Shown here: positions 15,378 to 40,022 of the stretch, one piece after another
Position numbering within the stretch: the first letter of the stretch is position 1
Layout of the letters: each line of letters opens with the position of its first letter
Source of the DNA: an uncultured Bacteriovoracaceae bacterium
GTDB taxonomy: Bacteria; Bdellovibrionota; UBA2428
Assembly: GCA_964609695.1 (NCBI GenBank)
Contig: CAZSSP010000003.1
Coordinates: 112,224 to 176,223, forward strand
DNA: 64,000 nt
Direction: 5' to 3'
Translations under genes and position numbers: made by a program
The notes under the pieces: model-generated
Database searches by the model: none
Told to the model about the DNA's origin: nothing
Seen by the model: the letters and a program-made list of their open reading frames with translations, nothing else

Positions 15378-16544
15378 ATGACCGAAAAAATCCCTGTTCA
15401 AATTGTCCTTGAAAAAGGTGCCCTTTTGGAAGGCCGCGGGTGGGGTGATTTTTCCAATTATCGTTCTGGTGAGTTTGTTTTTAGCACGGCGATGAGCGGT
15501 ATTGAAGAATCTCTAACTGACCCCAGTTTTGCCAAACAAGTTTTAGTCAATACGGTGTCTCATGTGGGTAACACAGGGATAAATTTAGAAGATCACGAAA
15601 GTTCAAAGATGTGGGCTGAGGGTCTAATCTGTCGTCATGTAGAAACGGTGCCTTCAAGTTGGCGATCGCGATTGAGTCTTCCTACTTGGATACAAGAACA
15701 GAAAAAGTTTTTGGTAGATAAAGTGGACACTCGAAAACTGACAATTTTTTTAAGAGAGACTGGATCGCAAAGAGGATTGGTTTTTCCAAAGGGGAAGCTC
15801 AGCATAGAAGCTGCCCAAAAGTATATTTTAGAAAATGTTCCTTCAATGGCGTCTTTAGAATTAAGTCGTCATGTCTCTTGCGAGAAAGCCTATGACTTCA
15901 CTACAGACACGCAGGCTTATTGGCCCATGAAAGATATTACGCGTGGCCAAGAGTCTAGCCTAAGACCTAAAGTTTTAGTTTGGGACTTTGGGGTGAAGAC
16001 TAATACGTTGAGATGGCTTCATTATCTGGGATTAGATGTTAGTGTTTTGCCTGCGACAGCTAAGGCCGAGGATTTTTTATCGACGAAAGCCTCTGGAATT
16101 TTATTGAGCAATGGCCCAGGAGATCCCGGGGCAGCTACTTTTTTACACGAGGAATTAAAAAAACTTTTAGGGCGAATTCCGATTTTTGGAATTTGTATGG
16201 GTCATCAACTTCTTGGAATTGCCTTAGGTGCTAAAACTCGAAAAATGAAGTTTGGACATCGAGGAATTCACCATCCTGTTGTGCAGTTCGATAAGGCTCG
16301 TAATCCCTTAAGAACGTGGATCACAAGTCAAAATCATGGTTTTGAGGTTGAAGAGGCTTCATTACCCTCCAATGTGTGGGTGAGTTTTCGCCATGCAGAT
16401 GATCAATCCGTTGAAGGATTGGAAGCCCCCAATCAGAAATGTTTTTCTGTTCAATTTCATCCGGAGTCCGCGCCTGGACCCTTCGATTGTTTTGATCTCT
16501 TTAAACGTTTTCAAGAGGAAGTTGTGAATTATGTTAGTCGATGA
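15378..16544 (+). CDS. carA: Carbamoyl-phosphate synthase small subunit (glutamine amidotransferase)
   Basis: GATase class I catalytic region GICMGHQLLGIALGAKT. CPSase small-chain N-domain. Confidence 0.9.
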   Translation: MTEKIPVQIVLEKGALLEGRGWGDFSNYRSGEFVFSTAMSGIEESLTDPSFAKQVLVNTVSHVGNTGINLEDHESSKMWAEGLICRHVETVPSSWRSRLSLPTWIQEQKKFLVDKVDTRKLTIFLRETGSQRGLVFPKGKLSIEAAQKYILENVPSMASLELSRHVSCEKAYDFTTDTQAYWPMKDITRGQESSLRPKVLVWDFGVKTNTLRWLHYLGLDVSVLPATAKAEDFLSTKASGILLSNGPGDPGAATFLHEELKKLLGRIPIFGICMGHQLLGIALGAKTRKMKFGHRGIHHPVVQFDKARNPLRTWITSQNHGFEVEEASLPSNVWVSFRHADDQSVEGLEAPNQKCFSVQFHPESAPGPFDCFDLFKRFQEEVVNYVSR

Positions 16545-17169
16545 ATATTTAGCCCGAGTCATAGAAGCCTACTTTAAAGATGAATATTACGAAGAAATTA
16601 AAGTGGCTCGAGACGAATTTTTTGCGGCCACTGGAAACGTGGCCGATGGTTCTGAACATTTCGAAGCTAAAATGAATAACTTTTTGGATTGGTATGTTTT
16701 TGATCGCCCCTTAAAAAAAATTGGGATTGTTCCTATAAAAGCTTTTGTTCAAGATCATACAAAAGAAATGAGTGAAGAAGAGCGGGGAATATACGATGAC
16801 TTCAGTCTTTCAAAGGTTTCAGTATATGAAATGCTAAAAATAAAAGGCAACGATCTTTACGTGCAAGATCTTTTCGACCGCGAAAAATGTGTGATTGAAG
16901 AGTCTGAGCTTTCTTCTGGATTTACAAAGGGCGATATTTTTCAAACTCGTCTACTTAAATATCGCGAGAGATTGTTGCTCGGAAGCGCTTTTGTTTTTCA
17001 CCCCTATGAAGCCAAGGCTTTCATTCAAAAACAAATTAAAAAGGTCAAATACTTAAAAGATGCTCATAGGCAAACATTGCTCCATAAGCTTTCAGCAATG
17101 AAGCAAAAGGCTGAGCAATACACACACATTGACGTTAAATATATTTATTCGGAAGAACCCATACTATGA
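16531..17169 (+). CDS. Hypothetical protein inserted between carA and carB
   Basis: 212-aa ORF overlapping the carA end by 14 nt and the carB start by 4 nt. No recognisable motif. Confidence 0.5.
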
Positions 17170-20100
17170 GTCGAGCCAAAACTTTTAATACGGTGATGAT
17201 ATTGGGAAGTGGTCCCATCACCATCGGACAAGCTTGTGAATTTGATTATTCAGGAACTCAAGCCTGTAGAGCATTAAAAGAAGAAGGTTATAAAGTTATA
17301 CTGCTCAATTCCAATCCGGCGACGATTATGACCGATCCTGGTGTAGCCGATAGAACTTATATTGAGCCCTTGGATCCTTCCGTAGTGATAGAGATTCTTC
17401 GAAAAGAAGGTGTTGATGCTATTTTGCCCACCATGGGAGGGCAAACGGCACTCAATATTATAATGAATTTAGCCAACATCCCACATGCCCTAGACGGTGT
17501 TGAGATTATAGGAGCCAATTTAAGAGCCATTCACTTGGCGGAAAATCGCAGAGCTTTTCGTGAGCTTGTTGAAAGTTTGGGAATGGATTCTCCCAGGTCT
17601 GCAATTATACGAAACATTGATGATGCTCGTGCTTTTGTTGAAGATGTTGGTTTTCCTTTTATTTTGCGTCCAAGTTTTACATTGGGTGGATCAGGCCAGA
17701 GCATTGTTTTTTCGTCTGAAGAGCTGATTGATAAAACCAATAGAGCTCTTGAATATAGTCCTATTGGCGAAGCTCTTGTTGAAGAAAGTGTGAAAGGTTG
17801 GAAAGAGTTTGAACTTGAGGTCATGAGAGATCGTCAAGACAACGCCATTGTTGTTTGTAGTATTGAGAATTTAGACCCAATGGGTGTGCATACCGGAGAT
17901 TCTATTACGGTAGCGCCACAGCAAACTCTTACCGATAGAGAGTATCAAGCGATGCGCTGGGAAGCACTTCGTTTAATACGTGCTGTAGGTGTTGAGACGG
18001 GTGGATGTAACGTGCAGTTTGCTGTGAATCCGCTCAATGGCAGAAGAGTTGTTATCGAAATGAATCCGCGTGTGTCTCGCTCTTCGGCTTTAGCCTCTAA
18101 GGCCACAGGATTTCCGATTGCTTATGTAGCCACTAAGTTGGCTATTGGTTACAATCTTTCTGAAGTTGATAATAGAATCACTTTAAGCACTAAGGCTTGT
18201 TTTGAACCTCCAATTGATTATGTGGCTTTAAAAATTCCTCGATTTCATTTTGAAAAATTTCCAGGGGCTATAGATGAATTGCTTCCTCAAATGCAAAGTG
18301 TGGGAGAGGTTTTATCTTTTGGCACGAGTTTAGGAGAGGCCTACCATAAAGCGCTTAATAGTTTAGAGAGAAAGTGGCCCCAATTTAAACCGGTAGATTC
18401 ACAAAATCCACAAGAGGCCTGGAGCTTTGAAAAAGAAGACTTGCTGATAAAAGCTCATTCCAAAAGATCTTTTGCCGTTTGGGATGCTTTAGCTTGTGGC
18501 GTATCTCCAGAAGAAGTGGCCCATTGGATGGAGTGGGACCCGTGGTTCACGCGGCAATTAAAATTGTATCAAGAAGAAAATTCATTGGGGCCTCGAGCAA
18601 TAAATCTTTCTAAAGATAATCCTCATTTTGAAATGATAGACACTTGTTCGGGTGAGAATAGAGTGCAAACTTCTTATTTTTATTCGACAAGAGAAAATTT
18701 TTCATTTGAGTCTCCGCAAAATCCTTATTTAGAAACACAAAGTTTAGCTTTACCTAAAGATAAACGTGGTCGAGCTGTGATATTGGGTTCTGGCCCAAAT
18801 CGTATTGGTCAGGGTGTGGAATTTGATTATTGCTGCGTTCATGCTTCCTTGGCTTTATTAAAGCTAGGATTTGAAACAGTTATGATTAACTGTAATCCTG
18901 AAACTGTAAGCACCGATCCGACTACATCGACTCGTTTATATTTAGAGCCCTTACATGAAGATTCTGTTCGAGCTATTCTTGAAAAGGAATTGGGACCTTT
19001 AAAGGCTGCCGGTCAAGAAGCTTTTGTTGTGATTCAAATGGGTGGTCAAACACCCTTAAAATTAGCTTCGAAGATTGAATCTTGGGGCTATAAATTATTA
19101 GGAACCACTCAACAGAGTATTGATTTGTGTGAAGATCGCGAAAAATTCGCTAAGTTTCTAAAGAAAAATAATATTCATTATCCAAGTTTTGCATCGGCTA
19201 CGACTCTTGAAGAATCTATAAAAGTTGTAAAAAAAATTGGTTATCCAGTATTAGTGAGGCCCTCCTATGTTTTGGGTGGGCGGGGTATGAAAATTTGTTA
19301 TTCTGATTTAGAACTTACAGAAGCTTTTCATGCAGCTAAGCAAGTGAATTCTGATTTCCCTTTATATCTGGACAAATATCTTAAAGATGCCATTGAATAT
19401 GACATTGATGGACTCTGCGATGGAAAAAAAGCTTGGGTTGCGGGAGTTATGGAACACGTTGAAGAGGCGGGAATACATAGCGGTGATTCTAGTTGCGTGA
19501 TTCCACCTTTTAGATTGCCTGCTTCAAAGATTGATGAAATGGCCGGGATTGCTAAAAAAATTGCGGTAGGTTCTGGAGGAAAAGGTTTCTTTAATATTCA
19601 AATGGCAGTTGTGGGCGAAGATGTTTTCGTTATCGAAGCCAATCCTCGAGCTTCTCGTACGGTGCCATTTTTAGCAAAAGCCACTGGCTATTCTTTGGTC
19701 GAGTGGGCGATTCGCTCTGCTTTAGGTGAAGAGTCGGTTTCTGAAATTGTGAAAGAAGCACCTATCCCTGGAAATTATCGCTTACCTAGTCATGGATATG
19801 CCGTGAAAACACCTGTCTTTCCGTTTGAGAAATTTAGAAATGTGGATCCAATTTTAGGACCAGAAATGAGAAGTACGGGTGAAGTTATGGGCGTGGGTCC
19901 CAATGCCGGAGATGCTTTGGCTAAATCGTTTTTAGCCTCTGGAGTTAAGCTTCCCGAAAAAGGCGGAATTTTGTTGAGTGTGAAGGATCGAGATAAAAAT
20001 CGATTGCTTCCCATCGCAAGGGGCCTTTCTTTAATGGGCTTTAGACTTTTGGGAACTCCTGGCACTTCAAGTTTTTTAGTCAGAGCGGGAATTGATTGTG

Positions 20101-20381
20101 AACAAGTTCAAAAAATTGGGCAAGCACCCATGGGACAAGATTTACTTCATTTCTTGCAGTCTTCAAAAGTACAAATGGTGGTGAACACTACTGAAACAGC
20201 AGGTTCCTTTAAAGATGGTGAAAGTATTCGGCAGATTGCTTTAAGGTTGAGAATTCCTCTTATGAGTACAATTTCTGCTGCTGAAATGGCACTTATGGCT
20301 ATTGAGAGACTTAAAAAGGGCCATATTCCTACAGTTTGCTTGCAAGACTTCATTGCAGGCGCTCAATTGACGCAGGTTTAA
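17166..20381 (+). CDS. carB: Carbamoyl-phosphate synthase large subunit
   Basis: 1071 aa. Duplicated ATP-grasp halves ([23 protein letters not shown] and [22 protein letters not shown]). MGS-like C-terminus. Confidence 0.95.
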
Positions 20382-23664: not shown

Positions 23665-25836
23665 TTAATTGGCCAATGTGGGACAAGCATTTGGATCAAC
23701 TTTAAAGTTGCCACAAACTTCTCGGGTTTTTTTGCTGTTAGGAAAACATACGTGGATATGATTATGGTGTCCATCTTCATAGCGACAGCTTCTTAAGTTA
23801 GGATCATTGAATAGAATCGTTTCACCGCCAAAATCCTTAGCCATATTGATAAATTTTTGAGTGATGCTCGGACTGTAAGCATTGTCACGGAAAGTAAGAG
23901 GTTCATCTTTAAATTCATCTTTTCTAAAGGGTCTTATGTCTACACAATTTCCAATGGTGTGCGAACTATGATCATTAAAATACATCGCATCGACTTTTGA
24001 AATATCTCCCCAAGAAAGTCGGTAAGCAGAATCTTTATAAGCTATTCCCGCTGGAGCTTGTTTTCGCCATTCTTGCATGAGTGCAGTGAAGGCACAGGCT
24101 GTGATAGGTGAGGCGTAAGCATCATTTCCATTAAGTCCGGCGTTATAGTGAAAACTTCCGCAGGGTCCAACGCTAGGGGCTTTAGGGTTTAAAGGAATTT
24201 GAACCAATCCTGCTTCTCTTACGAGTACAGATCTCCCTTTTCTAGTTGTTGTATAAAGTGCAGGTGAGGTTTTGAAGTACGGAGTTACATAATGTTTATC
24301 GGCTATCATTTTTTTAATTTCCCAAGTAAAAGAAGGTTCACTAAGGGTTTTTGTATCGGTGAGTTTGGCTAAGGTTAAATTAGGATCAGCTTTATAGCCA
24401 TGAGAATAAAACCAACTCATAACAGTCGGGTCTCTGCTGCCAGGTTTACCTATGAGTCTTAGAATTTCATTGACCCGTGATTTGGGGTCGCGAGCTTCTT
24501 CTTGAACCATTACGTCAACTAAGCGGTCTTCATAATCTTGGCTTCCAGGGGTGAGTCCTTCGAATCTATAAGCATATTTTTGAATCAGTAAAGCTCGTTC
24601 TTCACTGTCGAGGCGTTTGGGATCGTATCGAGTCCAGGCTTGTTCGTTGAGTTCGTCGACAAGATTTTTCATCTCCTCAAAATGAGCGTAACAATCATTT
24701 TTATCATCTTGGCTTTTAAATTTTTCTTGGTCACAGAATTTTTTTAAACTTTGACTTAAGTGATAATCGGTTTTGTCTTGGAGGTTGACACCTTTTTCTC
24801 TCAAAAAGATATTGTTGTTTCTTCGAAGCCGGGCCACAGCATTTACGTTATGCCAGATTGCAGTTTCCATATGGGGCTGTCCTATGGCACCTACAACTCG
24901 ATTGGCATATTCATTGGTGACGGCACCGTGTAGAAAATTTCTAGAAATTTCATTTGTGTAAGCTTTACCATTGAAACTATTTGAACCCACAACAAAATTA
25001 GATGTGTTGTAAGTGACTCCCGGCGCGTTGCTTTCATGGTTTTCAAGAAAAATTAATTTTTTCACATAATCCATGGCGTTTACAGTTTCTTTAATATGAA
25101 CGTTGCCTTTAGAATTTTCATCGAGCATTTCCACATTTTGAATGAAGTGATCTATGTTGGCTGGAGTGTCTTCACGGTATTCTCGTGATTTGTGCATTTT
25201 ATCTGAAACATCTTTCCAGAAATAAGAATTGAGATCTTGGAGCGGTTCCTCAAGAGTGTTTTGGCATCTTGTTCGATTCCAGTCCTTTTTGAGGTGGTAT
25301 TCGCACCAGTTTTTAATTTGTTCTTTTAGTAAATCTAATAAATTGGATTTTTCTTTGTGTGTTAAATAAAGATTATTTTTTCTTTGGAGGCGAGCAATGC
25401 TGTTTCCAAATTGCCAAACCTTAAGAGCAAAGTCAGGTTTTCCAAGAGACATAGTCACTTGAGCCAAATAAGAGTTTACAATTTGTGAGTGATATTGATT
25501 TCTTTCTTCTTTGTCTTTGTAGGGGACAAGTTTTCCCTCATCATTTAAATATCCATCGGGCCCTATAACGTAATCTGGAAACTGAACCGGAATACCTTTT
25601 TCGAGTATCTCATCAGATTTATTACTTCCACTAACTGAGGAAGATTGAGACATGTGCCGTTGGGCTTCGTCTAAAGTTATGGAGTTTATTTTTTTGGTAT
25701 AGAGTAGAGATTCTTTGAGGTCTGGTTCCCTCATTAGAGGAATGGCGTCAGCAGCTTTTAAGGCTGTTGAACTCATGAAAAAGAGTATAGCTGCGCTCAT
25801 AAACAGCATAGAAAATGAGCGGCACAGGCTTCTCAT
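23665..25836 (-). CDS. Large secreted protein with C-terminal LAS-family (M15/VanY-like) zinc peptidase signature
   Basis: N-terminal signal peptide. C-terminal SSHTIGNCVD (SxHxxGxAxD-like) and HNHIHV (HxH) motifs characteristic of D-Ala-D-Ala carboxypeptidase/LAS peptidases. Confidence 0.5.
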   Translation of the reverse strand: MRSLCRSFSMLFMSAAILFFMSSTALKAADAIPLMREPDLKESLLYTKKINSITLDEAQRHMSQSSSVSGSNKSDEILEKGIPVQFPDYVIGPDGYLNDEGKLVPYKDKEERNQYHSQIVNSYLAQVTMSLGKPDFALKVWQFGNSIARLQRKNNLYLTHKEKSNLLDLLKEQIKNWCEYHLKKDWNRTRCQNTLEEPLQDLNSYFWKDVSDKMHKSREYREDTPANIDHFIQNVEMLDENSKGNVHIKETVNAMDYVKKLIFLENHESNAPGVTYNTSNFVVGSNSFNGKAYTNEISRNFLHGAVTNEYANRVVGAIGQPHMETAIWHNVNAVARLRRNNNIFLREKGVNLQDKTDYHLSQSLKKFCDQEKFKSQDDKNDCYAHFEEMKNLVDELNEQAWTRYDPKRLDSEERALLIQKYAYRFEGLTPGSQDYEDRLVDVMVQEEARDPKSRVNEILRLIGKPGSRDPTVMSWFYSHGYKADPNLTLAKLTDTKTLSEPSFTWEIKKMIADKHYVTPYFKTSPALYTTTRKGRSVLVREAGLVQIPLNPKAPSVGPCGSFHYNAGLNGNDAYASPITACAFTALMQEWRKQAPAGIAYKDSAYRLSWGDISKVDAMYFNDHSSHTIGNCVDIRPFRKDEFKDEPLTFRDNAYSPSITQKFINMAKDFGGETILFNDPNLRSCRYEDGHHNHIHVCFPNSKKTREVCGNFKVDPNACPTLAN

Positions 25837-29033: not shown

Positions 29034-30521
29034 TTACTCTTGAGCAGCTGGGGGCTTGGGCAGTGATCCTGGAGTATTAACCAACATGGCTTTGGGTACA
29101 CTTTTATTTAAAAGTCCTATTACAGCGAGCCTATCTTTTACGGCTTTACTGACATTACTTTGAGAATATTCATGTTGATAATATGATAATAGCATTCTGC
29201 TTTCTTCAGAATCTGGGTGAGCGTTAATGAAATCAGGAGTTCCCATCTTTTTCAAATACGCTACAAGCTCAGAGGAGTTTTTAGGTTTGTTTTGGCGAAG
29301 CACATAAATCTGTTTGATGAAATCTAAGCTGTAATCACGAGACATGGGGTCTTTGTTTTCACCAACATCAGCAATCAATCGGGCCAATTCTTCGTTAGTA
29401 GTGTTGGGGAGTAATTGATCTAGTTTTAATTGATTAGGATCTGATGAATTATGCTTATAATTTGCATTCGCTACAATGGCTAACTCTCTAATTTCTATTC
29501 GGCTATTTTCTGACTGTTTAGCATAGGCCTCCAATACATCTCCTTCTTTGTCTCCGCTTCTTTTTTGGTAAAACTCGTTAATACTCGTATAAAGATTGGG
29601 AAAATCTTTTTTAACTTTCTCTAGTCCTTTGGCTTCATCATGAAAGAAATTGGGATTTTTCAGGTTTTCTGTAGCTTGTTTGAATAAGTCGAGTTTAGCT
29701 TTATTTTCTTTGGCCCCAATGTAATCGGCAAGACGTCCAACTTTACTGATTTGAGAACCTAACTCAACTTTTTCCTTTTCGCTTAAAAGGACTCCTGGTT
29801 TTTCTCTATCTTTTATATAAGAGGCAAAGGCTTTGGGGTTTTTCTTTTGATCTTTTAATGCAGCAAAGCAACGACTACCTAGTTTTTGGTATAAAGATTG
29901 ATAGACACTATTGTTGCTCAAATTTTCGAAATCACCCCAATCAAGATTGTCTTCGGCTTTTGATAGAATCCAGGGATTGTTTTCAGCGGGTATCATGCCA
30001 ATTAATTTCTTAAAAGAAACTTCAGTAGGAGCCTTATCAGTAAGCATGACAGAGTTAATTCCATCGTTGGATTTCTCGATAAGGAGTTGAATGCGTCCGA
30101 GAGCTTTAATCTCATCTATACTCAGTTCGCTATTGTTGTGCCTGATTGTTTCAAAGGCCTGAGTGATAGCGTTTTTATAAGCTTTGGCTTTCTCTGGATA
30201 GTTTTCTGGATCGGTTTTTTTTAAGGCTTGAAGTGCTTTTGCTTCTTCGTTCATGAGTCGATTGAGGTACCAGTATTTTGTGGAAGATTCTTCTTTGGGA
30301 TTTTTGATATCTTGGGGGCACTCAAAAATTGAGCTGAGTTTTATTTTAAAGCGTTCAGCTTCACTTTGAGTTTTTAAGGAACTGAAAATTTCCTTTTCAG
30401 CTGAAGTAGATAATACTTCAGTTTTTACTTTGCTGTGATTGTTAGACCCAGCAAAAATTTGAGAGGCTGATAAGATTGAGCAAGTTAAAGAGACTCTTTT
30501 GAATTTTTGAATTCTCAACAT
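29034..30521 (-). CDS. Hypothetical secreted Lys-rich protein
   Basis: 495 aa with signal peptide (VSLTCSILSASQIFAGS). No motif recognised. Confidence 0.35.
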   Translation of the reverse strand: MLRIQKFKRVSLTCSILSASQIFAGSNNHSKVKTEVLSTSAEKEIFSSLKTQSEAERFKIKLSSIFECPQDIKNPKEESSTKYWYLNRLMNEEAKALQALKKTDPENYPEKAKAYKNAITQAFETIRHNNSELSIDEIKALGRIQLLIEKSNDGINSVMLTDKAPTEVSFKKLIGMIPAENNPWILSKAEDNLDWGDFENLSNNSVYQSLYQKLGSRCFAALKDQKKNPKAFASYIKDREKPGVLLSEKEKVELGSQISKVGRLADYIGAKENKAKLDLFKQATENLKNPNFFHDEAKGLEKVKKDFPNLYTSINEFYQKRSGDKEGDVLEAYAKQSENSRIEIRELAIVANANYKHNSSDPNQLKLDQLLPNTTNEELARLIADVGENKDPMSRDYSLDFIKQIYVLRQNKPKNSSELVAYLKKMGTPDFINAHPDSEESRMLLSYYQHEYSQSNVSKAVKDRLAVIGLLNKSVPKAMLVNTPGSLPKPPAAQE

Positions 30522-30629
30522 ATGAATACATTATGAGGCATTTAATGTTAAAAAAGAAGGAATCCTGACTAAGCTTTTCGAGCGAATTATTGAAATATCG
30601 TCAAGTTTATAGAAGTTACTGACAATAAG

Positions 30630-30947
30630 TTAGTCATCTTCTTTATCGCAACAAAACATATTATCGCCATATCCGTCGTGAGGATCCAATGGGTGGCAAG
30701 TTGAAGCGTTAGATTTGATCATCTGGGCTTTAGACATCACCTTGCAATCGGATTCTTGATCTTTCCACTTTTTAACCTGTTCCTTAGAGGGTTTTGCGGC
30801 CTCTTCATATTGCATGGTTTCATTTATTTTTTCTCTATCCCACTCTTGCTCGTGCCCAACATGTTTAACCTTTGTCTGGTTTTTTTTCGAAGAACAAGCT
30901 GTTATGCTGATTAGGGATACAATGAAAAGGGTGAGGACTTTTCTCAT
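30630..30947 (-). CDS. Small lipoprotein
   Basis: MRKVLTLFIVSLISITAC lipobox. Cys-rich C-terminus (CHP...CCDKEDD). Confidence 0.35.
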   Translation of the reverse strand: MRKVLTLFIVSLISITACSSKKNQTKVKHVGHEQEWDREKINETMQYEEAAKPSKEQVKKWKDQESDCKVMSKAQMIKSNASTCHPLDPHDGYGDNMFCCDKEDD

Positions 30948-30968
30948 AACTTCTAATTTTACAGACTC

Positions 30969-33386
30969 ATGAAGAATGTCCAACATATATTTTGGTCGAA
31001 CGGAAAAAACACTTTAACGCTTGACACCCTGCTCTGGAAGTTTCCGCAAAAGCTCTTAGCTTCACTGAATCTAAAAGAACTCCAAGTCTCTATATATAAT
31101 GCTCTAGTTCTGGATTGGGGCGATGCTCCCGTTGCGGATTTAGAAGAAATTAAAAACTGGATTCGATGCGGATCAAATTTTCAGTTTGTAGATAAATATC
31201 CTACATTTGCTTTAGAGTTTAGATCTAAAAGTTCCTTAGCTCAGGAGCTTCCTACGCTTTTATTAAGTAATTTTCAGCACGGAGCTCATTCAAGCCCTCA
31301 TTCTATTTATCAAAGTAAAATTCTCGAATTTCATTTTACAGGGCCTGAAGGAGAATCCCTATGGGAGAAAATTCTTGAAGCATTAAAAAAGCGCCCCAAT
31401 CTCAATACGCTCTGGGATCCAGTTGTAGAAGAAATGCGCGTAGTGAAAGATTCTAAATATGATTTCTGGACTTTTTCTCGAAATGATTTTTCTCAGTGGA
31501 AGGATATTCAAGCAATAATCGAATCTGAGTATGAAAATCAAGAAACTCATCCCTTAAAAAATCATCATTTGCTTATCGAAAAACAAAATGCACAAGAAGA
31601 AGCTCGACCTAGATATGTTCAAAATCAACTCGCTAAGGATCTTTGGAGTAATTTGTATGGTAAAGAATTTAAAGCACAGGCTGATTTTTTATTTTTTAAA
31701 CCTAAAAAGTGGAAGTTGAGGCAGTTCTCAGAATTTTCACCTAAAAGAGTACTAGCTAAATCCTTAGCGTTGTCTGGAAAACCTTTAGGAAATTTTGTTG
31801 AAATTGAAATCAATTCTGTTTTCCCTCGTGTTGAGAGCCTCAGTTCTTTGCCTGTTTCAAGTCAACGCTTTTATAATCAAAAGAATGGTGAACACTTATT
31901 TTTTGTGGGCCCTTGGGATTCTAATAATAAGGTTGTAGAGCAATCTGTTGAAAAGTGGCTTCAAGCTAAACCCGATCTTCTTATTAGAGGAATTCTTTGG
32001 GATTCATCTGAAAATTGGGTGTATTCGTTGTTAGAAACAGTTTTCAAGCTTCCTGGATGGCGTTTCGAGAAATCTGCATTTATGAATTTCTTAAGTGCCG
32101 TTAGTGAAAAGTCCTATTCATCAAATTATTTAATTTTCTGGGGAGAAATTAAAGAAATCACTCAATTTCAAGATGGAACATTTCCCGCTGGTTTAAAAGC
32201 TGGAATTTTAGGGTCTCGTGATCGCGATGGAGTTTATCAAGTCGATGCTTTTGAAGAGTCTGCTTCGTTTTTTTCAAAATTAAAATCAGATCTTAAAACT
32301 GGAAGTGATCCAAATTCTTTAGCTAGTAAATTAAAAACAGTTATTCGAGAAAATCCTCAAATTAAAGCCGCCTCATATGGCTACGATAGGGCGTCAGCGT
32401 TTCCAGATCAATATAGCTTAAAGGCGCATGTGGTCGCACGTGGGACCAATCAAGAGTGGATTGAGTCTCTGTGGTTAAATAGAACCGGATCTAAAATTTG
32501 GTCTACTACTATGGGATCCTTTTTTAATATCGCTAGTAATTCAAGAAAAGTGGCTACGGGTGAAAATTTAAATGTCGTAGCTGGGCAGCGTCTGCGTGCT
32601 TCTTGGTCCCATAACCCCGCTAAGAGTGCGGCTATTTTAATCGATGATGCCTTGAGGTCACTATTATCTCAGGGGGCTTCTCTAAAACGTATCAGCGTTA
32701 ATTTATGGATTGGATATGGCCGAAGATTATCGGGCCCCACTCAAGCTTCATTAAGTTTATTTTTTGAATCGTTTAAATCAAATTTATTAAAATTAGGGAT
32801 GAGCTTAGATTCTTTAAAAATGTCGCCTATGGCTCATTCGGAAGGCTTAGACGCATTTTTAATGCTGCAATCTCAAGAAGGATTATTGGAGCCTCAAGAT
32901 TCATTTTCTGGGTTTAGAATGGAAGAGGAAAGCATTTATTCTGTGGGGCCTAGACCCTTTCAAATGGAGTCGGGAAGTACGGTGCTTCGTTTTGTGCGAG
33001 TTTATTCTAATTTTGTTTCTTCCATTGAAGTTGAAAAGCAAATACAACTTTATCATCGCTTATCAGAACTTCAGAGAAAGGGAATCATATCTTCATTATC
33101 TAGCGTAACAGAAAGGGGTATAGCTGGATCTTTGTTAAATATGTCACTCTGGGGATCTCGTGGCGCGCAATTGCGACCAGGTTTGTCTTCAATAGAATTG
33201 TTTAGCGCAAGTCCTGGTCGATTACTTGTAGGTGTTCTGCCTCAAGATGCAAAAACTTTTGAATCTGAATTAAAAGGTGAGCAAGTATTAATGGTTGGAA
33301 CTGTTAAAGGGGATCGACTTTGGGGTTTAAAGTTAAGTGAAATGGTGAAGGTCATGACAGATTATGAAAAAGATCATATTGCTTAA
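30969..33386 (+). CDS. Divergent PurL-like (FGAM synthase / PurM-fold) protein
   Basis: C-terminal SVTERGIAGSLLNMSLWGSRGAQLRPG...ELFSASPGRLLVGV resembles the PurM C-terminal-domain consensus (HDVAEGGLG..LAE...LFSESQSR.V..V). WSHNPAKSAA is a weak echo of the E(S/T)HNHPSA motif. Confidence 0.45.
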   Translation: MKNVQHIFWSNGKNTLTLDTLLWKFPQKLLASLNLKELQVSIYNALVLDWGDAPVADLEEIKNWIRCGSNFQFVDKYPTFALEFRSKSSLAQELPTLLLSNFQHGAHSSPHSIYQSKILEFHFTGPEGESLWEKILEALKKRPNLNTLWDPVVEEMRVVKDSKYDFWTFSRNDFSQWKDIQAIIESEYENQETHPLKNHHLLIEKQNAQEEARPRYVQNQLAKDLWSNLYGKEFKAQADFLFFKPKKWKLRQFSEFSPKRVLAKSLALSGKPLGNFVEIEINSVFPRVESLSSLPVSSQRFYNQKNGEHLFFVGPWDSNNKVVEQSVEKWLQAKPDLLIRGILWDSSENWVYSLLETVFKLPGWRFEKSAFMNFLSAVSEKSYSSNYLIFWGEIKEITQFQDGTFPAGLKAGILGSRDRDGVYQVDAFEESASFFSKLKSDLKTGSDPNSLASKLKTVIRENPQIKAASYGYDRASAFPDQYSLKAHVVARGTNQEWIESLWLNRTGSKIWSTTMGSFFNIASNSRKVATGENLNVVAGQRLRASWSHNPAKSAAILIDDALRSLLSQGASLKRISVNLWIGYGRRLSGPTQASLSLFFESFKSNLLKLGMSLDSLKMSPMAHSEGLDAFLMLQSQEGLLEPQDSFSGFRMEEESIYSVGPRPFQMESGSTVLRFVRVYSNFVSSIEVEKQIQLYHRLSELQRKGIISSLSSVTERGIAGSLLNMSLWGSRGAQLRPGLSSIELFSASPGRLLVGVLPQDAKTFESELKGEQVLMVGTVKGDRLWGLKLSEMVKVMTDYEKDHIA

Positions 33387-34017
33387 AGGGCCTGGGTTAT
33401 TAGATTATTCTGAAATCGCATTTCTATTTGAGTCTCCTGACGTTAGTTTCGAAACCATAGAAATTAATGCATTTAGTTCAGAGCACCCTCGTTTTTCAGA
33501 TTTAAAATTTGATGGATTGATTTTTGGTTCTCCATATTTTTTTAGTCCCGAAGAAGCTCTTTGGGTTCGTTTGTTAACGAAAAAAATTGCACCACTTTTA
33601 GACAATTGTTGGGAGTCTAACGCTAAGGTTTTAGCGATGGGACGTGGTGCTTTAGTGTTTTGGGAATGGATGCTGGCTGATCGTTGGAAAAATTGGAAGG
33701 TTTTTGAATCCGCTGGTGTCGATGATTCTCTTTTAGAGTGCGAATTTTTTATTAGGGGTGAATGGAAGGCTTTGCGTTGTGGTCGTTTCAGTACTGACTT
33801 TATTTTACCAGAAACTAATGATTTCACGGATTGGGAGTCATTTTTAAGAAATTCAGGAAACACATTAGGTTGGGTGACTCGTAATTGCTATATCACTTTA
33901 GTGGATTTGCTTGCTTTTATGAATTCGGCTCAATTAGAATCTTATGGTTATTCGACTGATATTGAGCCCGGGGACTTTGCTGGGACCATAATTGAGGATA
34001 TTTTTGAATTAAAATGA
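33364..34017 (+). CDS. PurQ-like class I glutamine amidotransferase homologue, probably catalytically inactive
   Basis: KKIILLKGPG...FDGLIFGSPYFFSPEEAL...KVLAMGRGALVFWEWM parallels the PurQ/PurL glutaminase layout, but the nucleophile Cys position (GxCNG) reads AMGRG. Overlaps the upstream gene by 23 nt. Confidence 0.4.
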   Translation: MKKIILLKGPGLLDYSEIAFLFESPDVSFETIEINAFSSEHPRFSDLKFDGLIFGSPYFFSPEEALWVRLLTKKIAPLLDNCWESNAKVLAMGRGALVFWEWMLADRWKNWKVFESAGVDDSLLECEFFIRGEWKALRCGRFSTDFILPETNDFTDWESFLRNSGNTLGWVTRNCYITLVDLLAFMNSAQLESYGYSTDIEPGDFAGTIIEDIFELK

Positions 34018-35402
34018 GAAGCAGAGAAGAAGTTTTTGAAGATTGGAAAAAAAAATCCCTTCAGGATTTTTGGTTAATTTCTCAAGAGTTCTTTTCTTCT
34101 GATTCCGATTTTGTAGAGTTATTAGATAGAGTTTCCTACCAAGTAAAAAAGGGTAAATTAAGAAGCAGTGTAGAGTGTGACCGCTATTTGTTTTCACTTT
34201 TCCTTAAAACATTAGGTCAAAAAAGAAGAGCTGTTACTGAAAAAATTTATTTATTAGCATTGTTTAAGCTCAATTGGCCTCTTGAAAAGTTGTCTTCATT
34301 AACACATGAATATACTTCGAAAATAAAGTTTGTAGTCACTCAATCTTTAAAAGATAGGGTTTCTGTAGAGTTGAGCTCTAAAAAACTAACTCAGGATTGC
34401 TGCCGGGCCGATCTTTTTTTGGTGGATTATTTATTTGAGCGATCTTGGAAGCTTCCTTTTAAGGAAAATTTTAATCTTTTAACACTGAAAAATCATTTAA
34501 AATCTTGTGAACGTTGTCAGGCTGTGGTGGGTGCTGCCGAGGGAATTAAATCGCAAGTTGTTTATCAAGATATTAAAACATTTGAATATCAGTATCCCTT
34601 TACAAAAAAGATAAGCAAAAACAAAGTTCTCAAAAGTTTTGAGTTTTATCAGAACTTTTCATTGCATTGGAAGGGCTTAATTCAGATTCTACTTTCTATA
34701 GTATTAGTTTTTTCTATTGCGACAATTCCATTTGTTGGTAAATTTCTCATAAAACAACAACAAGGGGCTCAGTCTGAGGGCGAAGCAAAGAAAGCTGCAG
34801 TTGAAAAGCTTGATGCGACTTGGGTTGATTTAGCTCTCGAGCGTGATTTAATCTCTCCTCCTTGGCTTGTGAGTGAGCAACATGATAGCCCTCAGATTTC
34901 ACCTCTAAGTAAATTTTTAAATAATTATAAAGCAGAAGAAATAGCGCTTTCTCAGAAAAAAGAGACTGTTGATGTAGAGGCCCCAAAAGTGCAGGCTCCT
35001 CAGGTGGCTAAGAATGATGGCCCTAAAAACGCAGTAGTAGAAGTTGTAAAAGCGGATATTAAAACACGCTCTGAAATTGAAGAAGAGAATGCAGCAGAAT
35101 CTGATAATCAGTGGGTATTTTATAGGTGGGGTGCTTACGCTGAGGATCTAGACGTGATAGTTCCGAAAATTTTGAGCGTTCTTGAAATAAATCAAGCGGA
35201 AAAAGCCGGAGAACTAGATTTGGGTGCTGAGTATCGTGGTGGCCGCTATTTTCACTTTTCCATTAAAAAAGAGTTAATGAGAAAAGTTGTTGATGAATTA
35301 AAGACTTTAAAGCTTGAAGGATTTACAAAAGTTGAAGCAAAGTCAGACCGTAAAAATAAAGAAGGTCATTCAAGAATAGTCTTTCTACTCAAGCAAAAAT
35401 AA
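34014..35402 (+). CDS. Single-pass membrane protein with ZAS-type (zf-HC2) anti-sigma zinc-finger motif
   Basis: DCCRADLFLVDYLFE...(31 aa)...NHLKSCERCQ gives C...H-x3-C-x2-C. Central TM (LIQILLSIVLVFSIATIPFVGKFLI). ATGA overlap with the upstream gene. Confidence 0.4.
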   Translation: MRSREEVFEDWKKKSLQDFWLISQEFFSSDSDFVELLDRVSYQVKKGKLRSSVECDRYLFSLFLKTLGQKRRAVTEKIYLLALFKLNWPLEKLSSLTHEYTSKIKFVVTQSLKDRVSVELSSKKLTQDCCRADLFLVDYLFERSWKLPFKENFNLLTLKNHLKSCERCQAVVGAAEGIKSQVVYQDIKTFEYQYPFTKKISKNKVLKSFEFYQNFSLHWKGLIQILLSIVLVFSIATIPFVGKFLIKQQQGAQSEGEAKKAAVEKLDATWVDLALERDLISPPWLVSEQHDSPQISPLSKFLNNYKAEEIALSQKKETVDVEAPKVQAPQVAKNDGPKNAVVEVVKADIKTRSEIEEENAAESDNQWVFYRWGAYAEDLDVIVPKILSVLEINQAEKAGELDLGAEYRGGRYFHFSIKKELMRKVVDELKTLKLEGFTKVEAKSDRKNKEGHSRIVFLLKQK

Positions 35403-35430
35403 ATGAAAAGCTTGCTCATGATTTTGAGTT

Positions 35431-35689
35431 TTAAATAAGGTGATTAGTATTTATATATTTTTCCCTAAGAGTTGTTGGGGGTGCGGCCGTAAGCGTGCGT
35501 TAACAATTCTATATTAGCTTTACCGAAAGACACGGCAGGGCACCCCCTTCCTCAGGTCTTCGCCTAATGGCTCGACCTTCGGGAACCCCGAGTGTCTTTC
35601 GGTAAAGCTAATATAGAATTGTTAACGCATGCCGATGGCGCGGAGGAACTCTTAGGGAAAAATATATAAATACTAATCACCTTATTTAA
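35431..35689. repeat. About 260-bp nested perfect inverted-repeat element (41-bp outer arms plus 37-bp inner arms) between convergent genes
   Basis: 35431-35471 is the exact reverse complement of 35649-35689. 35497-35533 is the exact reverse complement of 35592-35628. An asymmetric internal loop separates them, with a 58-nt GC-rich centre carrying small hairpins. Confidence 0.8.
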
Positions 35690-35726
35690 AGAGTAAACCC
35701 ACTAATAAGCTTTTCGTTTTTTTTGC

Positions 35727-37538
35727 TTAAGTGCTTTTGATTATATTCAATCTTAAATCGGCAAGCTGATCGCTGCTAACCGGTGACGGGCATTCACTCA
35801 TTAAACAAAGTGAAGAAGCCGTTTTCGGAAAAGCGATAACATCACGAATGCTAGAGGTTCCAGCTAGAACCATAATAAGTCGATCAAAACCAAAAGCGAT
35901 ACCGCCGTGAGGAGGCGTTCCATATTTTAAAGCTTCTACAAAAAATCCAAATTTTTGAACAATTTCTTCTTCGCTAAGTCTCAAAGCTCTAAACATGGCT
36001 TTTTGAACTTCAGAATCATAAATTCTTAGACTACCGCCAGCAACTTCATAACCATTAAGGGCTAAATCGTAGGCCTGTGCTCTAACATTCTTAAGCTCTT
36101 CAATGTCTCCTTTAAGAAGTTTAGGAAGATCTTCATCGTTGGGGCGTGTGAAGGGGTGGTGAGCCGCACCTAATTGTTGAGTTTGAGGGTCGTATTCAAA
36201 TAAAGGAAATTCTGTAATCCAAGTGAAGACCCATTTATCGCTGATTCCTTCCTTAACTAAACCAATCTCTTTAGCTAGATGCTGACGAAGGGCTCCCATC
36301 GCTTGATAAATTCTTGGGGCTTCGGCGGCACCTAAGAGAAGATAATCACCTTCGGAAAGACCCCATTTTTTAGTTAATTCACCCTGTAAGTTAGCATCAA
36401 AAAATTTGGCTATAGGAGAATTCCACTGTCCATCTTTAATTCGAATCCAGGCGACCCCTTTGAGTCCAAATGGGCTGACCACTGGATTGAAGTTCTCAAG
36501 GTCTTTGCGAGACCATTCCGGTAGCGCAATCTTTTCTTCTTTGAGTTCATTTTGAGTGACTTTAATCCCAATAACTTTACCGCCAGCCGCGACAACGCTT
36601 GAGAAAACTTTAAAATCACATTTTGCGAAGTTATCGCTTAGATCTTCGAGTTTTAATTTGTATCGTAAGTCGGGCTTGTCAGAACCATAGACCGACATGG
36701 CTTCTTGGTAATCCATCCTCTTAAATGGAATTTGAAGATTGACGTTGAGCACTTCTTTCCAGAGTTTTTGGACAAATCTTTCCATAATTGAAAGGAATTC
36801 GTCTTGAGATAGAAAACTAGCTTCCAAATCTATTTGAGTAAATTCAGGTTGGCGGTCGGCTCTTAAGTCTTCATCGCGAAAACAACGAGCAATTTGAAAA
36901 TAACGTTCGAATCCGGCAATCATAAGAAGTTGTTTAAGAGTTTGGGGCGACTGTGGAAGTGCAAAAAAGCTTCCATGATAAACTCTGGAGGGAACTAAGT
37001 AATCTCGAGCACCCTCTGGAGTGCTTTTATAAAGGATAGGGGTTTCAACTTCTAAAAATCCTTCCTCACTAAAGAATTGGCGGGTGAGCTGAAGAGCCTT
37101 ATGGCGTGTTTGTAATATTTTTTGTAATTGAGGACGTCTTAAATCCAAATATCGATACTTTAAACGAGTGTTTTCATGCGCGCTGTCGCTAGATTCATCA
37201 ATAGAGAAGGGAGGGACCTCAGCTTTTGCGAGTACATTAAGTGCAGTGACTTCAACTTCAACTTCGCCACTAGCAATTTTTGAATTAATCATATTGTCTG
37301 GACGAGCTTTTACAATTCCAGAAATTTGAATAACAAATTCACTTCGTAATTTTTCAGATTCTGCTAAGTTTTGGGGTAAGACCAACTGGCAAAGACCAGA
37401 ACGGTCACGAAGATCAATAAAACTGACTCCTCCGTGATCTCTTAGGCGATTAACCCAGCCGCAAAGACGGACTTCTTTACCGACAAGTGTTTTGTCGAGG
37501 GATGAACATGAGTGTGTACGATATGGATAACGGGACAT
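35727..37538 (-). CDS. aspS: Aspartate--tRNA ligase
   Basis: 603 aa. Class II aaRS motifs (FRDEDLRADRQPEFTQID, GGSLRIYD, GFDRL). N-terminal OB anticodon-binding domain. Confidence 0.95.
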   Translation of the reverse strand: MSRYPYRTHSCSSLDKTLVGKEVRLCGWVNRLRDHGGVSFIDLRDRSGLCQLVLPQNLAESEKLRSEFVIQISGIVKARPDNMINSKIASGEVEVEVTALNVLAKAEVPPFSIDESSDSAHENTRLKYRYLDLRRPQLQKILQTRHKALQLTRQFFSEEGFLEVETPILYKSTPEGARDYLVPSRVYHGSFFALPQSPQTLKQLLMIAGFERYFQIARCFRDEDLRADRQPEFTQIDLEASFLSQDEFLSIMERFVQKLWKEVLNVNLQIPFKRMDYQEAMSVYGSDKPDLRYKLKLEDLSDNFAKCDFKVFSSVVAAGGKVIGIKVTQNELKEEKIALPEWSRKDLENFNPVVSPFGLKGVAWIRIKDGQWNSPIAKFFDANLQGELTKKWGLSEGDYLLLGAAEAPRIYQAMGALRQHLAKEIGLVKEGISDKWVFTWITEFPLFEYDPQTQQLGAAHHPFTRPNDEDLPKLLKGDIEELKNVRAQAYDLALNGYEVAGGSLRIYDSEVQKAMFRALRLSEEEIVQKFGFFVEALKYGTPPHGGIAFGFDRLIMVLAGTSSIRDVIAFPKTASSLCLMSECPSPVSSDQLADLRLNIIKST

Positions 37539-38905: not shown

Positions 38906-39829
38906 TTATTGAAGGCGAAGTATACCAAAAGACACTTGAGATTGGTCGATAAAGTATTGTCCGTGAAGATGTCTCATGTAAGATTCAATGAAAGTTTGTT
39001 TAATAATGGAATCGCTATTTTTAATAAGTTGAGTCTTTACGAAATCAATATAAATAATGGCATTATCTGTATTCACCATATTGGCTAAATATGAAGATGG
39101 AACAGTGATGCTTCCAGTGTTTGGTCCAATGCAAATGATAGGATCCGTTTGATAGTCAGCTAGAAGAAGTCTGACGAAGCCAGCGGAAGTGGCTCCGGAG
39201 TACTTTAATGTAAAACCGGAATTTTTTTGAATCGTAATCATTTGGTTTGGGTCATAGCTTGGGCTTGGTATATTTTGATAGATTTCGCTGCCACTTTTAA
39301 GTTGAAGATTAGATCCAGGACTTGGAATCGTGAAGTTTTGTCGGGTGTGGAGAACTCCGTTGATACCTTGGGTTTCAAAAGAATGAGTGCCGGGGCCAAG
39401 ATAAAGATTATCAGAAACATAATAATCACCATTGGAGCCTTGTTGAGGATTAAAATTTAAAGCCGTTTCCCCTTGAGGCGTGATTAAAACTGAGCCGAAA
39501 TTTAAAAATCGGGTCAAGGTGATTGGAGTGGTGGCATTGCTATAACTCGTGCATCCCATGCTAGGATTGGCAACGCTTGTGTAATCAGAATCATTGGTGG
39601 CCACAAAAGATTTTCCAACAAAGCCCGAAAGTGCGTCTCTGAGTTCCATATCAAAGACGGGATGTTGAATAAATTTGAAGTTAACAATGACATTTGCGGT
39701 GATAGCGTCGCTTTCAATTTTTTTATCTTCTTCACTTTTGCTTGTTGTGATTGGATTTTTTACACGACATGCGATCAGAGTGACGAACAAACATGTGAAT
39801 GAGAAGATTTTATGAAATTTTCCGCGCAT
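38906..39829 (-). CDS. Hypothetical lipoprotein
   Basis: Probable start at MRGKFHKIFSFTCLFVTLIAC (lipobox). No other motif. Confidence 0.4.
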   Translation of the reverse strand: MRGKFHKIFSFTCLFVTLIACRVKNPITTSKSEEDKKIESDAITANVIVNFKFIQHPVFDMELRDALSGFVGKSFVATNDSDYTSVANPSMGCTSYSNATTPITLTRFLNFGSVLITPQGETALNFNPQQGSNGDYYVSDNLYLGPGTHSFETQGINGVLHTRQNFTIPSPGSNLQLKSGSEIYQNIPSPSYDPNQMITIQKNSGFTLKYSGATSAGFVRLLLADYQTDPIICIGPNTGSITVPSSYLANMVNTDNAIIYIDFVKTQLIKNSDSIIKQTFIESYMRHLHGQYFIDQSQVSFGILRLQ

Positions 39830-40022
39830 ATTTCTATTATAGATTGTCGTCAAAAGTGATTTCTCAAAGATTTTTGACATCCCATTTCAAAAAAATGACA
39901 AAAATCTACCAAGTATTGAGAAAAATTAAATTTGCTATTGCGCACAAGGCGAATGACACGTAAGGTTAGTAGAAGAAGAGAAAAAAATTTCTCTTCAAAA
40001 TTTCCATAGGAGGGCCAAAAAG

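Follow-up and report, generated by a model that had tools for sequence, protein, structure and literature searches.

Homologues of metabolic enzymes that have lost catalysis have received much study in eukaryotes and viruses, the herpesvirus FGARAT homologues among them, but in bacteria they are poorly catalogued. The viral glutamine amidotransferases (vGATs) of gammaherpesviruses, which include ORF75 of Kaposi's sarcoma-associated herpesvirus (KSHV), ORF75c of murine gammaherpesvirus 68 (MHV68) and BNRF1 of Epstein-Barr virus (EBV), are enzyme-deficient homologues of cellular FGARAT/PFAS (PMC7605207). In the archaeon Methanoculleus marisnigri, the PurQ paralogue Memar_1841 is truncated by about 150 residues and is missing all three triad residues, which has been read as decay (PMC3261824). 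In PurL, the FGAM synthetase active site lies in the A1-B1 half and an auxiliary ADP site, whose function is unknown, in the A2-B2 half; the glutaminase domain packs on a long loop and the A2 region (PMC3815217). Here we describe a locus in a 64,000-nucleotide stretch of DNA (the window) from an uncultured Bacteriovoracaceae bacterium, contig CAZSSP010000003.1, in which an open reading frame (ORF) of 217 amino acids (aa) at 33364..34017 (+), with an ATG start and an intact frame, encodes a protein with a class I glutamine amidotransferase (GATase) fold of the PurQ type that has lost the Cys-His-Glu triad.

We consider it roughly 70% probable that this protein and the 805-aa protein encoded just upstream (30969..33386, +) constitute a repurposed, non-enzymatic binding or scaffold complex of the predatory-type Bdellovibrionota, derived from PurL and PurQ. 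The 217-aa protein would be a descendant of a PurQ-type glutaminase in which the fold was kept, the catalytic Cys gave way to an invariant Gly93, the oxyanion motif was replaced, and no conserved His or Glu of the triad remains. It would be made together with, and most likely bound to, the 805-aa protein, and the pair would preserve the PurL-PurQ architecture of its ancestor in a binding or scaffolding role, no longer acting as an FGAM synthase.

The earlier note on this DNA had described 33364-34017 as a GATase homologue without the catalytic Cys, taking PurQ and the large-PurL glutaminase as comparators and aligning the stretch KVLAMGRGALVF with their G-V-C-N-G-x-Q elbow. The stretch does read as quoted there, at residues 88-99 (33625..33660, +), and its assignment as a degenerate nucleophile elbow is borne out by profile alignment, MAFFT, a column census and the strand-helix geometry of an AlphaFold 2 (AF2) model. 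For the profile comparison, 19 family sequences that are 22-46% identical to the query (alignment A1) were set against eight sequences of genuine PurQ or PurL glutaminase taken from annotated records, among which G-x-C-N-G-x-Q and M-P-H-P-E are invariant. The family profile matches the PurQ profile in hhalign over the N-terminal 98 columns (probability 66%, E 5.6e-5), and the pairing of A91-M92-G93-R94-G95-A96-L97 with G-I-C-N-G-F-Q has the highest column confidence. This match scores 38.1; the reversed PurQ profile reaches 13.6, and 20 profiles with shuffled columns reach 10.5-16.8. MAFFT, run independently with two genuine PurQ sequences, arrives at the same register. Because these two registers agree and G93 lies at the strand-helix junction of the model, we read Gly93 (codon 33640-33642; R94, 33643-33645; G95, 33646-33648) as the equivalent of the catalytic Cys. 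Each of the 19 aligned members has Gly at this position, as do five further orthologues, so the relatives have lost the Cys too.

The oxyanion strand has changed as well. Residues 51-65 (GLIFGSPYFFSPEEA; 33514..33558, +) align by hhalign with the PurQ oxyanion-strand motif PGGFSYGDYL, and by the column census its core GGFSYGD is replaced, the family consensus being LRGPWsxsPEE and the window protein reading IFGSPYFFSPEE. Across A1, Cys occurs in no more than 3 of 19 sequences at any column and His in no more than 2 of 19. Because no column holds a conserved Cys or His, the triad is absent from the family rather than relocated, and hydrolysis of glutamine through a thioester would be impossible, as the earlier note had argued on the condition that its alignment was correct. 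In the C-terminal half, the near-invariant Asp181 ends the last strand, where PurQ has its His-Pro-Glu region. The register is uncertain here, as MAFFT and the model suggest different H-P-E registers and a forced global hhalign alignment is untrustworthy in this half, but the ambiguity leaves the conclusion on triad loss untouched because the census covers all columns. Asp181 and the motif Q190, G195, Y196 together mark out residues 181-196 (33904..33951, +) by their conservation and by the confidence pattern of the model. The window's carA gene (15378..16544), which served as an internal control, keeps both GICMGHQ and FHPE. Two further profile comparisons were set aside as too weak to use: E. 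coli PurL gave E 0.069 with the register shifted by two (Gly95 under Cys, still with no Cys in the family), and the GATase domain of the window CarA gave no match.

In the class I GATase fold, the nucleophile elbow carries the nucleophile at a strand-helix junction. The AF2 model of the 217-aa protein built with A1 (mean predicted local distance difference test score, pLDDT, 85; predicted template modelling score, pTM, 0.85; five models at 79-85) has strand 88-93 abutting helix 94-104, with G93 at the junction; prediction from the single sequence gave pLDDT 36 and was not usable. The elements of the model run beta1, alpha, beta2, beta3, long alpha and beta4 leading directly into a helix, followed by an antiparallel beta region, the last strand and a C-terminal helix, an order that we read as that of a class I GATase, matching PurQ. 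At E <= 0.001, a Foldseek search of the PDB has 56 matches, of which the 50 listed all belong to the class I GATases. The best is GMP synthase subunit A (2a9v, E 8.9e-7), the PurQ subunit of the Thermotoga maritima PurLQS complex (3d54_D) matches with E 1.3e-5 and a template modelling (TM) score of 0.53, and others listed include TM1158, Pdx2, gamma-glutamyl peptidase, HisH, PabA and GatD. In a viral structure library, the best match is the EBV 'FGAM-synthase' (E 5.8e-5), and gammaherpesvirus tegument proteins homologous to FGARAT fill five of the first ten ranks. Judged from the model, the 217-aa protein thus has the class I GATase fold, the strand-elbow-helix site included.

The only segment of the model with pLDDT below 50 is residues 189-198 (33928-33957), which coincides with the most conserved C-terminal motif of the family, Q190, G195 and Y196. 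Because the most conserved C-terminal motif is also the least confident part of the monomer model, this segment may bind a partner and become ordered only upon it.

Pfam and NCBIfam scans found no match for the 217-aa protein, and none of the 19 family members has a Pfam match even at E <= 10. PDB sequence searches with the single sequence and with the family profile gave chance matches only. Word-indexed protein searches returned almost only one protein, 98% identical, from the metagenome-assembled genome (MAG) 'Proteobacteria bacterium' GCA_018001635.1. HMMER, run exhaustively over 1.84 billion representatives, brought up 21 proteins at E <= 0.001, almost all of them 210-280 aa long and matching end to end. 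Each member that has a name is labelled 'hypothetical protein'. The named records are 'uncultured Bacteriovorax sp.' and 'Bdellovibrionota bacterium' MAGs. The best reading of these results is an undescribed, Bdellovibrionota-restricted family that the Pfam and NCBIfam models searched do not detect.

Within A1, G11, G93 and R94 are invariant, G9, A96, D181, Q190, G195 and Y196 are nearly so, as is Gly95 (17 of 19). At four positions of otherwise strong conservation, the window protein and its nearest relatives differ from the family (R55G, W113V, W123L and R188S); theirs is a divergent branch. Against the relative at locus L001, the 217-aa gene differs by 37 synonymous and 5 non-synonymous changes, a ratio of non-synonymous to synonymous rates (dN/dS) of 0.028; the flanking genes give 0.057 (805-aa) and 0.078 (462-aa). 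The gene is under strong purifying selection and is not decaying, since this ratio is accompanied by full-length orthologues down to about 22% identity.

The partner encoded upstream is degenerate too. NCBIfam PurL models match the 805-aa protein at residues 647-790 (E 1e-7, 30.6 bits against a cut-off of 648), and AIRS_C falls just below threshold in it but is matched in 5 of 6 orthologues (best E 1.4e-7). A profile of six orthologues (A4) matches a profile of small PurL (A5) in hhalign with probability 97.9% and E 5e-13, with columns 411-821 falling on PurL 334-738 only, so that the PurL-homologous part of the window protein spans approximately residues 395-800 (nt ~32151-33370, +) and corresponds to the A2-B2 half. 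Split by halves, the C-half of the family matches the PurL C-half (98.2%, E 3e-14) and the PurL N-half far less well (30.8%, E 5e-4), whereas its N-half matches neither PurL half nor its own C-half (below 1%, E 0.29-0.83); as a control, the two halves of PurL match each other at 99.1% (E 5e-19). The N-terminal ~400 aa likewise have no relative in Pfam or the PDB, a PDB sequence search with the 805-aa family profile found nothing, and the protein does not show the full A1-B1-A2-B2 duplication of PurM type with a catalytic N-half. At the aligned positions, the conserved TDCLNFGSPE and SGNVSLYNE of PurL are missing. Because only the A2-B2 half of PurL aligns, and given the described architecture of that enzyme, the partner appears from sequence to have kept the non-catalytic, glutaminase-facing half, with the catalytic half replaced by a novel region of ~400 aa.

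The two genes are closely joined in the genome. The 805-aa gene runs 23 nt into the 217-aa gene (33364..33386, +), which suggests translational coupling, and the stop codon of the 217-aa gene overlaps the ATG of a 462-aa gene (34014..35402, +) at an ATGA junction. Hydropathy indicates no membrane segment in the 217-aa or the 805-aa protein, and the 217-aa protein is soluble and cytoplasmic. We compared the contexts of loci L001, L003, L004-6, L007-9, L011, L012, L013 and L025 and of two further contigs, and in all of them the order is a ~100-aa gene (-), then genes of ~800-866, ~210-251 and ~420-509 aa, then aspS (-) and hisS (+). In the relatives, overlaps among the plus-strand genes are mostly of 4 nt. 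A profile scan of genome contigs with the 805-aa alignment returned four loci. Beyond what the earlier note had observed, it thus emerges that the partner is also degenerate, that the pair and the third gene are a deeply conserved operon, and that the family is invisible to the libraries searched. The expectation stated in that note, that a dead GATase serves a structural or regulatory role, is a reasonable one for this protein.

Several degrees of confidence are to be distinguished within the proposed scheme. We hold with high confidence that the predicted complex would have neither FGAM synthetase nor glutaminase activity. That the two proteins still form a complex of the ancestral PurL-PurQ type is somewhat better than an even bet, and that the old pocket, with its invariant Gly-Arg-Gly elbow, binds something instead of hydrolysing it (perhaps through the invariant Arg94 at the old active site) is proposed with low to moderate confidence. 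The module would also work with the downstream single-pass membrane protein that bears a Cys/His zinc-finger-like motif, a step in which our confidence is low.

A number of observations weigh against this interpretation. The hhalign probability is only 66% and covers the N-terminal half alone, and the His/Glu register is ambiguous. The AF2 model was built on a shallow alignment of 19 sequences, its TM-scores in Foldseek are moderate (0.5-0.6), and PurQ is only at rank 16 in the Foldseek list, behind GuaA subunit A, Pdx2 and others. Pfam, NCBIfam and PDB sequence searches all fail to recognise the 217-aa protein. Neither PurS nor other pur genes were found nearby in the window or in the relatives, so the locus has no pur-operon context. 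The link of the 217-aa protein to the third gene is drawn from gene order only, and both the complex and ligand binding are predictions.

The third gene encodes a 462-aa single-pass membrane protein, as judged from orthologue alignment and hydropathy. In six orthologues (alignment A6), C129 and H161-x3-C165-x2-C168 are invariant in an N-terminal cytoplasmic region, which is followed by one transmembrane helix at ~221-243 (hydropathy) and a conserved C-terminal domain (FFRWGA...GGxYFHF...SRIVF). The H-x3-C-x2-C motif with an upstream Cys/His ligand is shared with ZAS/zf-HC2 anti-sigma factors. It is possible that the pair is a cytoplasmic metabolite sensor controlling a membrane protein of anti-sigma-like type, in which a small molecule would occupy the former glutamine pocket or the auxiliary nucleotide site of the PurL half. 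We regard this possibility as doubtful; if true, it would amount to a previously undescribed signalling system of the Bdellovibrionota built from a retired purine-biosynthesis enzyme. Library support for the motif is negligible (zf-HC2, E 0.29 in 1 of 6 orthologues; RsrA, E 0.1), and no sigma-factor Pfam family occurs among the neighbours in any context examined. An anti-sigma identity of the 462-aa protein was therefore not adopted, as it has the motif in its favour but neither library models nor neighbours. The segment upstream of the Cys/His motif (consensus EISFLTGxxVSRVR) looks like a helix-turn-helix of the sigma region-4 type, although no library model supports this.

It is also conceivable, if unlikely, that the 217-aa protein acts alone, as a ligand-binding or regulatory protein with the GATase fold and without binding the 805-aa protein, the genes being neighbours only through shared regulation in a lineage-specific operon. 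The structural ranking is not specific to PurQ, the complex itself is a prediction, and the synteny of aspS, hisS and the M14 peptidase gene is also conserved in this lineage, which makes adjacency alone a weak argument. The stop/start overlap with the PurL-like gene is nevertheless kept even at ~22-30% identity, the two proteins derive from the two subunits of one known complex, and the retained PurL half is the one near the glutaminase interface (PMC3815217), all of which argue for a pair.

A further alternative to a binding or scaffold complex is that the protein is still an enzyme, its scaffold rebuilt on another catalytic set (Ser/Thr178 with Asp181, or an Arg94-assisted reaction) to give an amidase, a transferase or some other activity, the product of which possibly feeds the PurL-like partner. 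The earlier note had proposed to look for an alternative nucleophile; of possible alternative residues, the best conserved are Ser/Thr178 (16 of 19), Asp181 (18 of 18) and Arg94 (19 of 19), and Q190 and Y196 (18 of 18 each) add to the conserved polar residues. Purifying selection is strong, and the invariant residues at the old elbow suggest that the pocket still matters. Still, no Cys/His/Glu triad is found elsewhere in the protein, the family has no conserved His or Cys anywhere, and the replacements at positions 55, 113, 123 and 188 of the window protein are unexpected for a tight active site. The partner, moreover, has neither the catalytic A1-B1 half nor TDCLNFG and SGNVSLYNE at the aligned positions. 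We know of no class I GATase-fold enzyme that uses such a catalytic set, and we hold an enzymatic role to be quite unlikely.

It is very improbable that the protein is not derived from a GATase at all, being instead a generic flavodoxin-like alpha/beta sandwich or an artefact of a model built on a shallow alignment. Such a reading would account for the failed Pfam, NCBIfam and PDB sequence searches, the moderate TM-scores and the absence of an hhalign match to the CarA GATase domain. However, the 50 PDB matches listed include no CheY, flavodoxin or DJ-1, the order of elements is that of PurQ, the PurQ profile match lies far above its reversed and shuffled controls, and the neighbouring gene is itself PurL-derived. 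Finally, a decaying, functionless remnant of a former purQ, to which the loss of all catalytic residues and the truncated archaeal remnant (PMC3261824) might point, is effectively refuted by the dN/dS of 0.028, the intact frame, the full-length orthologues in 21 representative clusters down to 22% identity, the invariant motifs and the conserved operon structure.

The surroundings of the operon are those of an ordinary bacterial chromosome, with carA, carB, greA, recG, lptC/A-like genes, aspS, hisS and an M14 peptidase gene in the window. The window contains neither a canonical PurQ nor a canonical PurL. A 152-aa antisense ORF (33405..33863, -) lies wholly within the 217-aa gene and is most likely a spurious chance ORF in AT-rich DNA. 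A scan of 30400-35800 for promoters and terminators gave counts not above shuffled controls. Divergent from the operon is a 118-aa ORF (30630-30986, -) with a lipoprotein-like N-terminus (...SLISITAC), a Cys-rich C-terminus and no Pfam match; a gene of ~100-117 aa occupies this position in most relatives examined. In distant relatives (L007, L008, L025 and the two further contigs), a class B acid phosphatase gene precedes the operon, and a phosphonate-binding-type ATP-binding cassette (ABC) transporter is also found upstream in three of them. The window instead has an ORF resembling an outer-membrane beta-barrel and a 495-aa ORF of unknown function (29034-30521, -). The latter has no Pfam domain, nor do a 723-aa ORF (23665-25836, -) and a 324-aa ORF (38906-39880, -). 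L001, the closest relative, also has genes at the positions of the 723-aa and 495-aa ORFs, and most relatives have a gene of ~307-320 aa at that of the 324-aa ORF. In L012, an extra 361-aa ORF stands ahead of aspS. A 212-aa ORF without a Pfam match (16531-17169, +) lies between carA (15378-16544) and carB (17166-20381) and overlaps the ends of both, an unusual insertion in the normally contiguous carAB.

Set beside known systems, the 217-aa protein shares its fold with PurQ (T. maritima 3D54 chain D) and with the C-terminal glutaminase domain of large PurL (Salmonella 1T3T). It resembles PurQ in a detectable profile similarity of its N-terminal half, in the register of the elbow, in its length of ~220 aa and in its overlapping PurL-related neighbour. 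It differs from PurQ in that its family has Gly in place of Cys, no GGFSYGD, no MPHPE and no conserved His, fails the Pfam and NCBIfam models, occurs with neither PurS nor a pur operon, and has a partner without the catalytic half. Foldseek E-values for GuaA subunit A (2a9v), Pdx2/YaaE (2nv0), TM1158 (1o1y) and Arabidopsis GGP1 are comparable to or slightly better than that for PurQ, but all of these are active Cys-His-Glu enzymes that lack a PurL-like neighbour. Fold and descent place the protein in the class I GATase superfamily, closest to PurQ. Annotation as PurQ or amidotransferase should be avoided, because both the catalytic features and the curated sequence models fail. Unlike Memar_1841, the family has kept its full length, is ancient and evolves under strong purifying selection.

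Conceptually, the vGATs (PMC7605207) come nearest as a precedent. Both they and the bacterial pair derive from FGAM synthetase and have been turned to a non-metabolic use, which for the bacterial pair we infer. The vGATs are single polypeptides of the large-PurL type, ~1300 aa long, that are made by animal viruses and co-opt the host PFAS. The bacterial pair, by contrast, is encoded by two separate genes, keeps half of the synthetase module and has no known partner enzyme. As far as the present data show, the relation is one of analogy and not of shared descent. We found no description of a dead bacterial PurL/PurQ pair in the searchable literature, although absence there is not proof. It seems that both amidotransferase subunits were retired jointly and have persisted side by side throughout the lineage, from 98% down to ~22% identity, and they would provide a clean natural example of an enzyme complex turned to another use. 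Recognising the family improves the annotation of Bdellovibrionota genomes and guards against wrongly inferring or discounting a capacity for purine biosynthesis from weak PurL-like matches. If the link to the membrane protein is real, these loci would also define a new signalling module.

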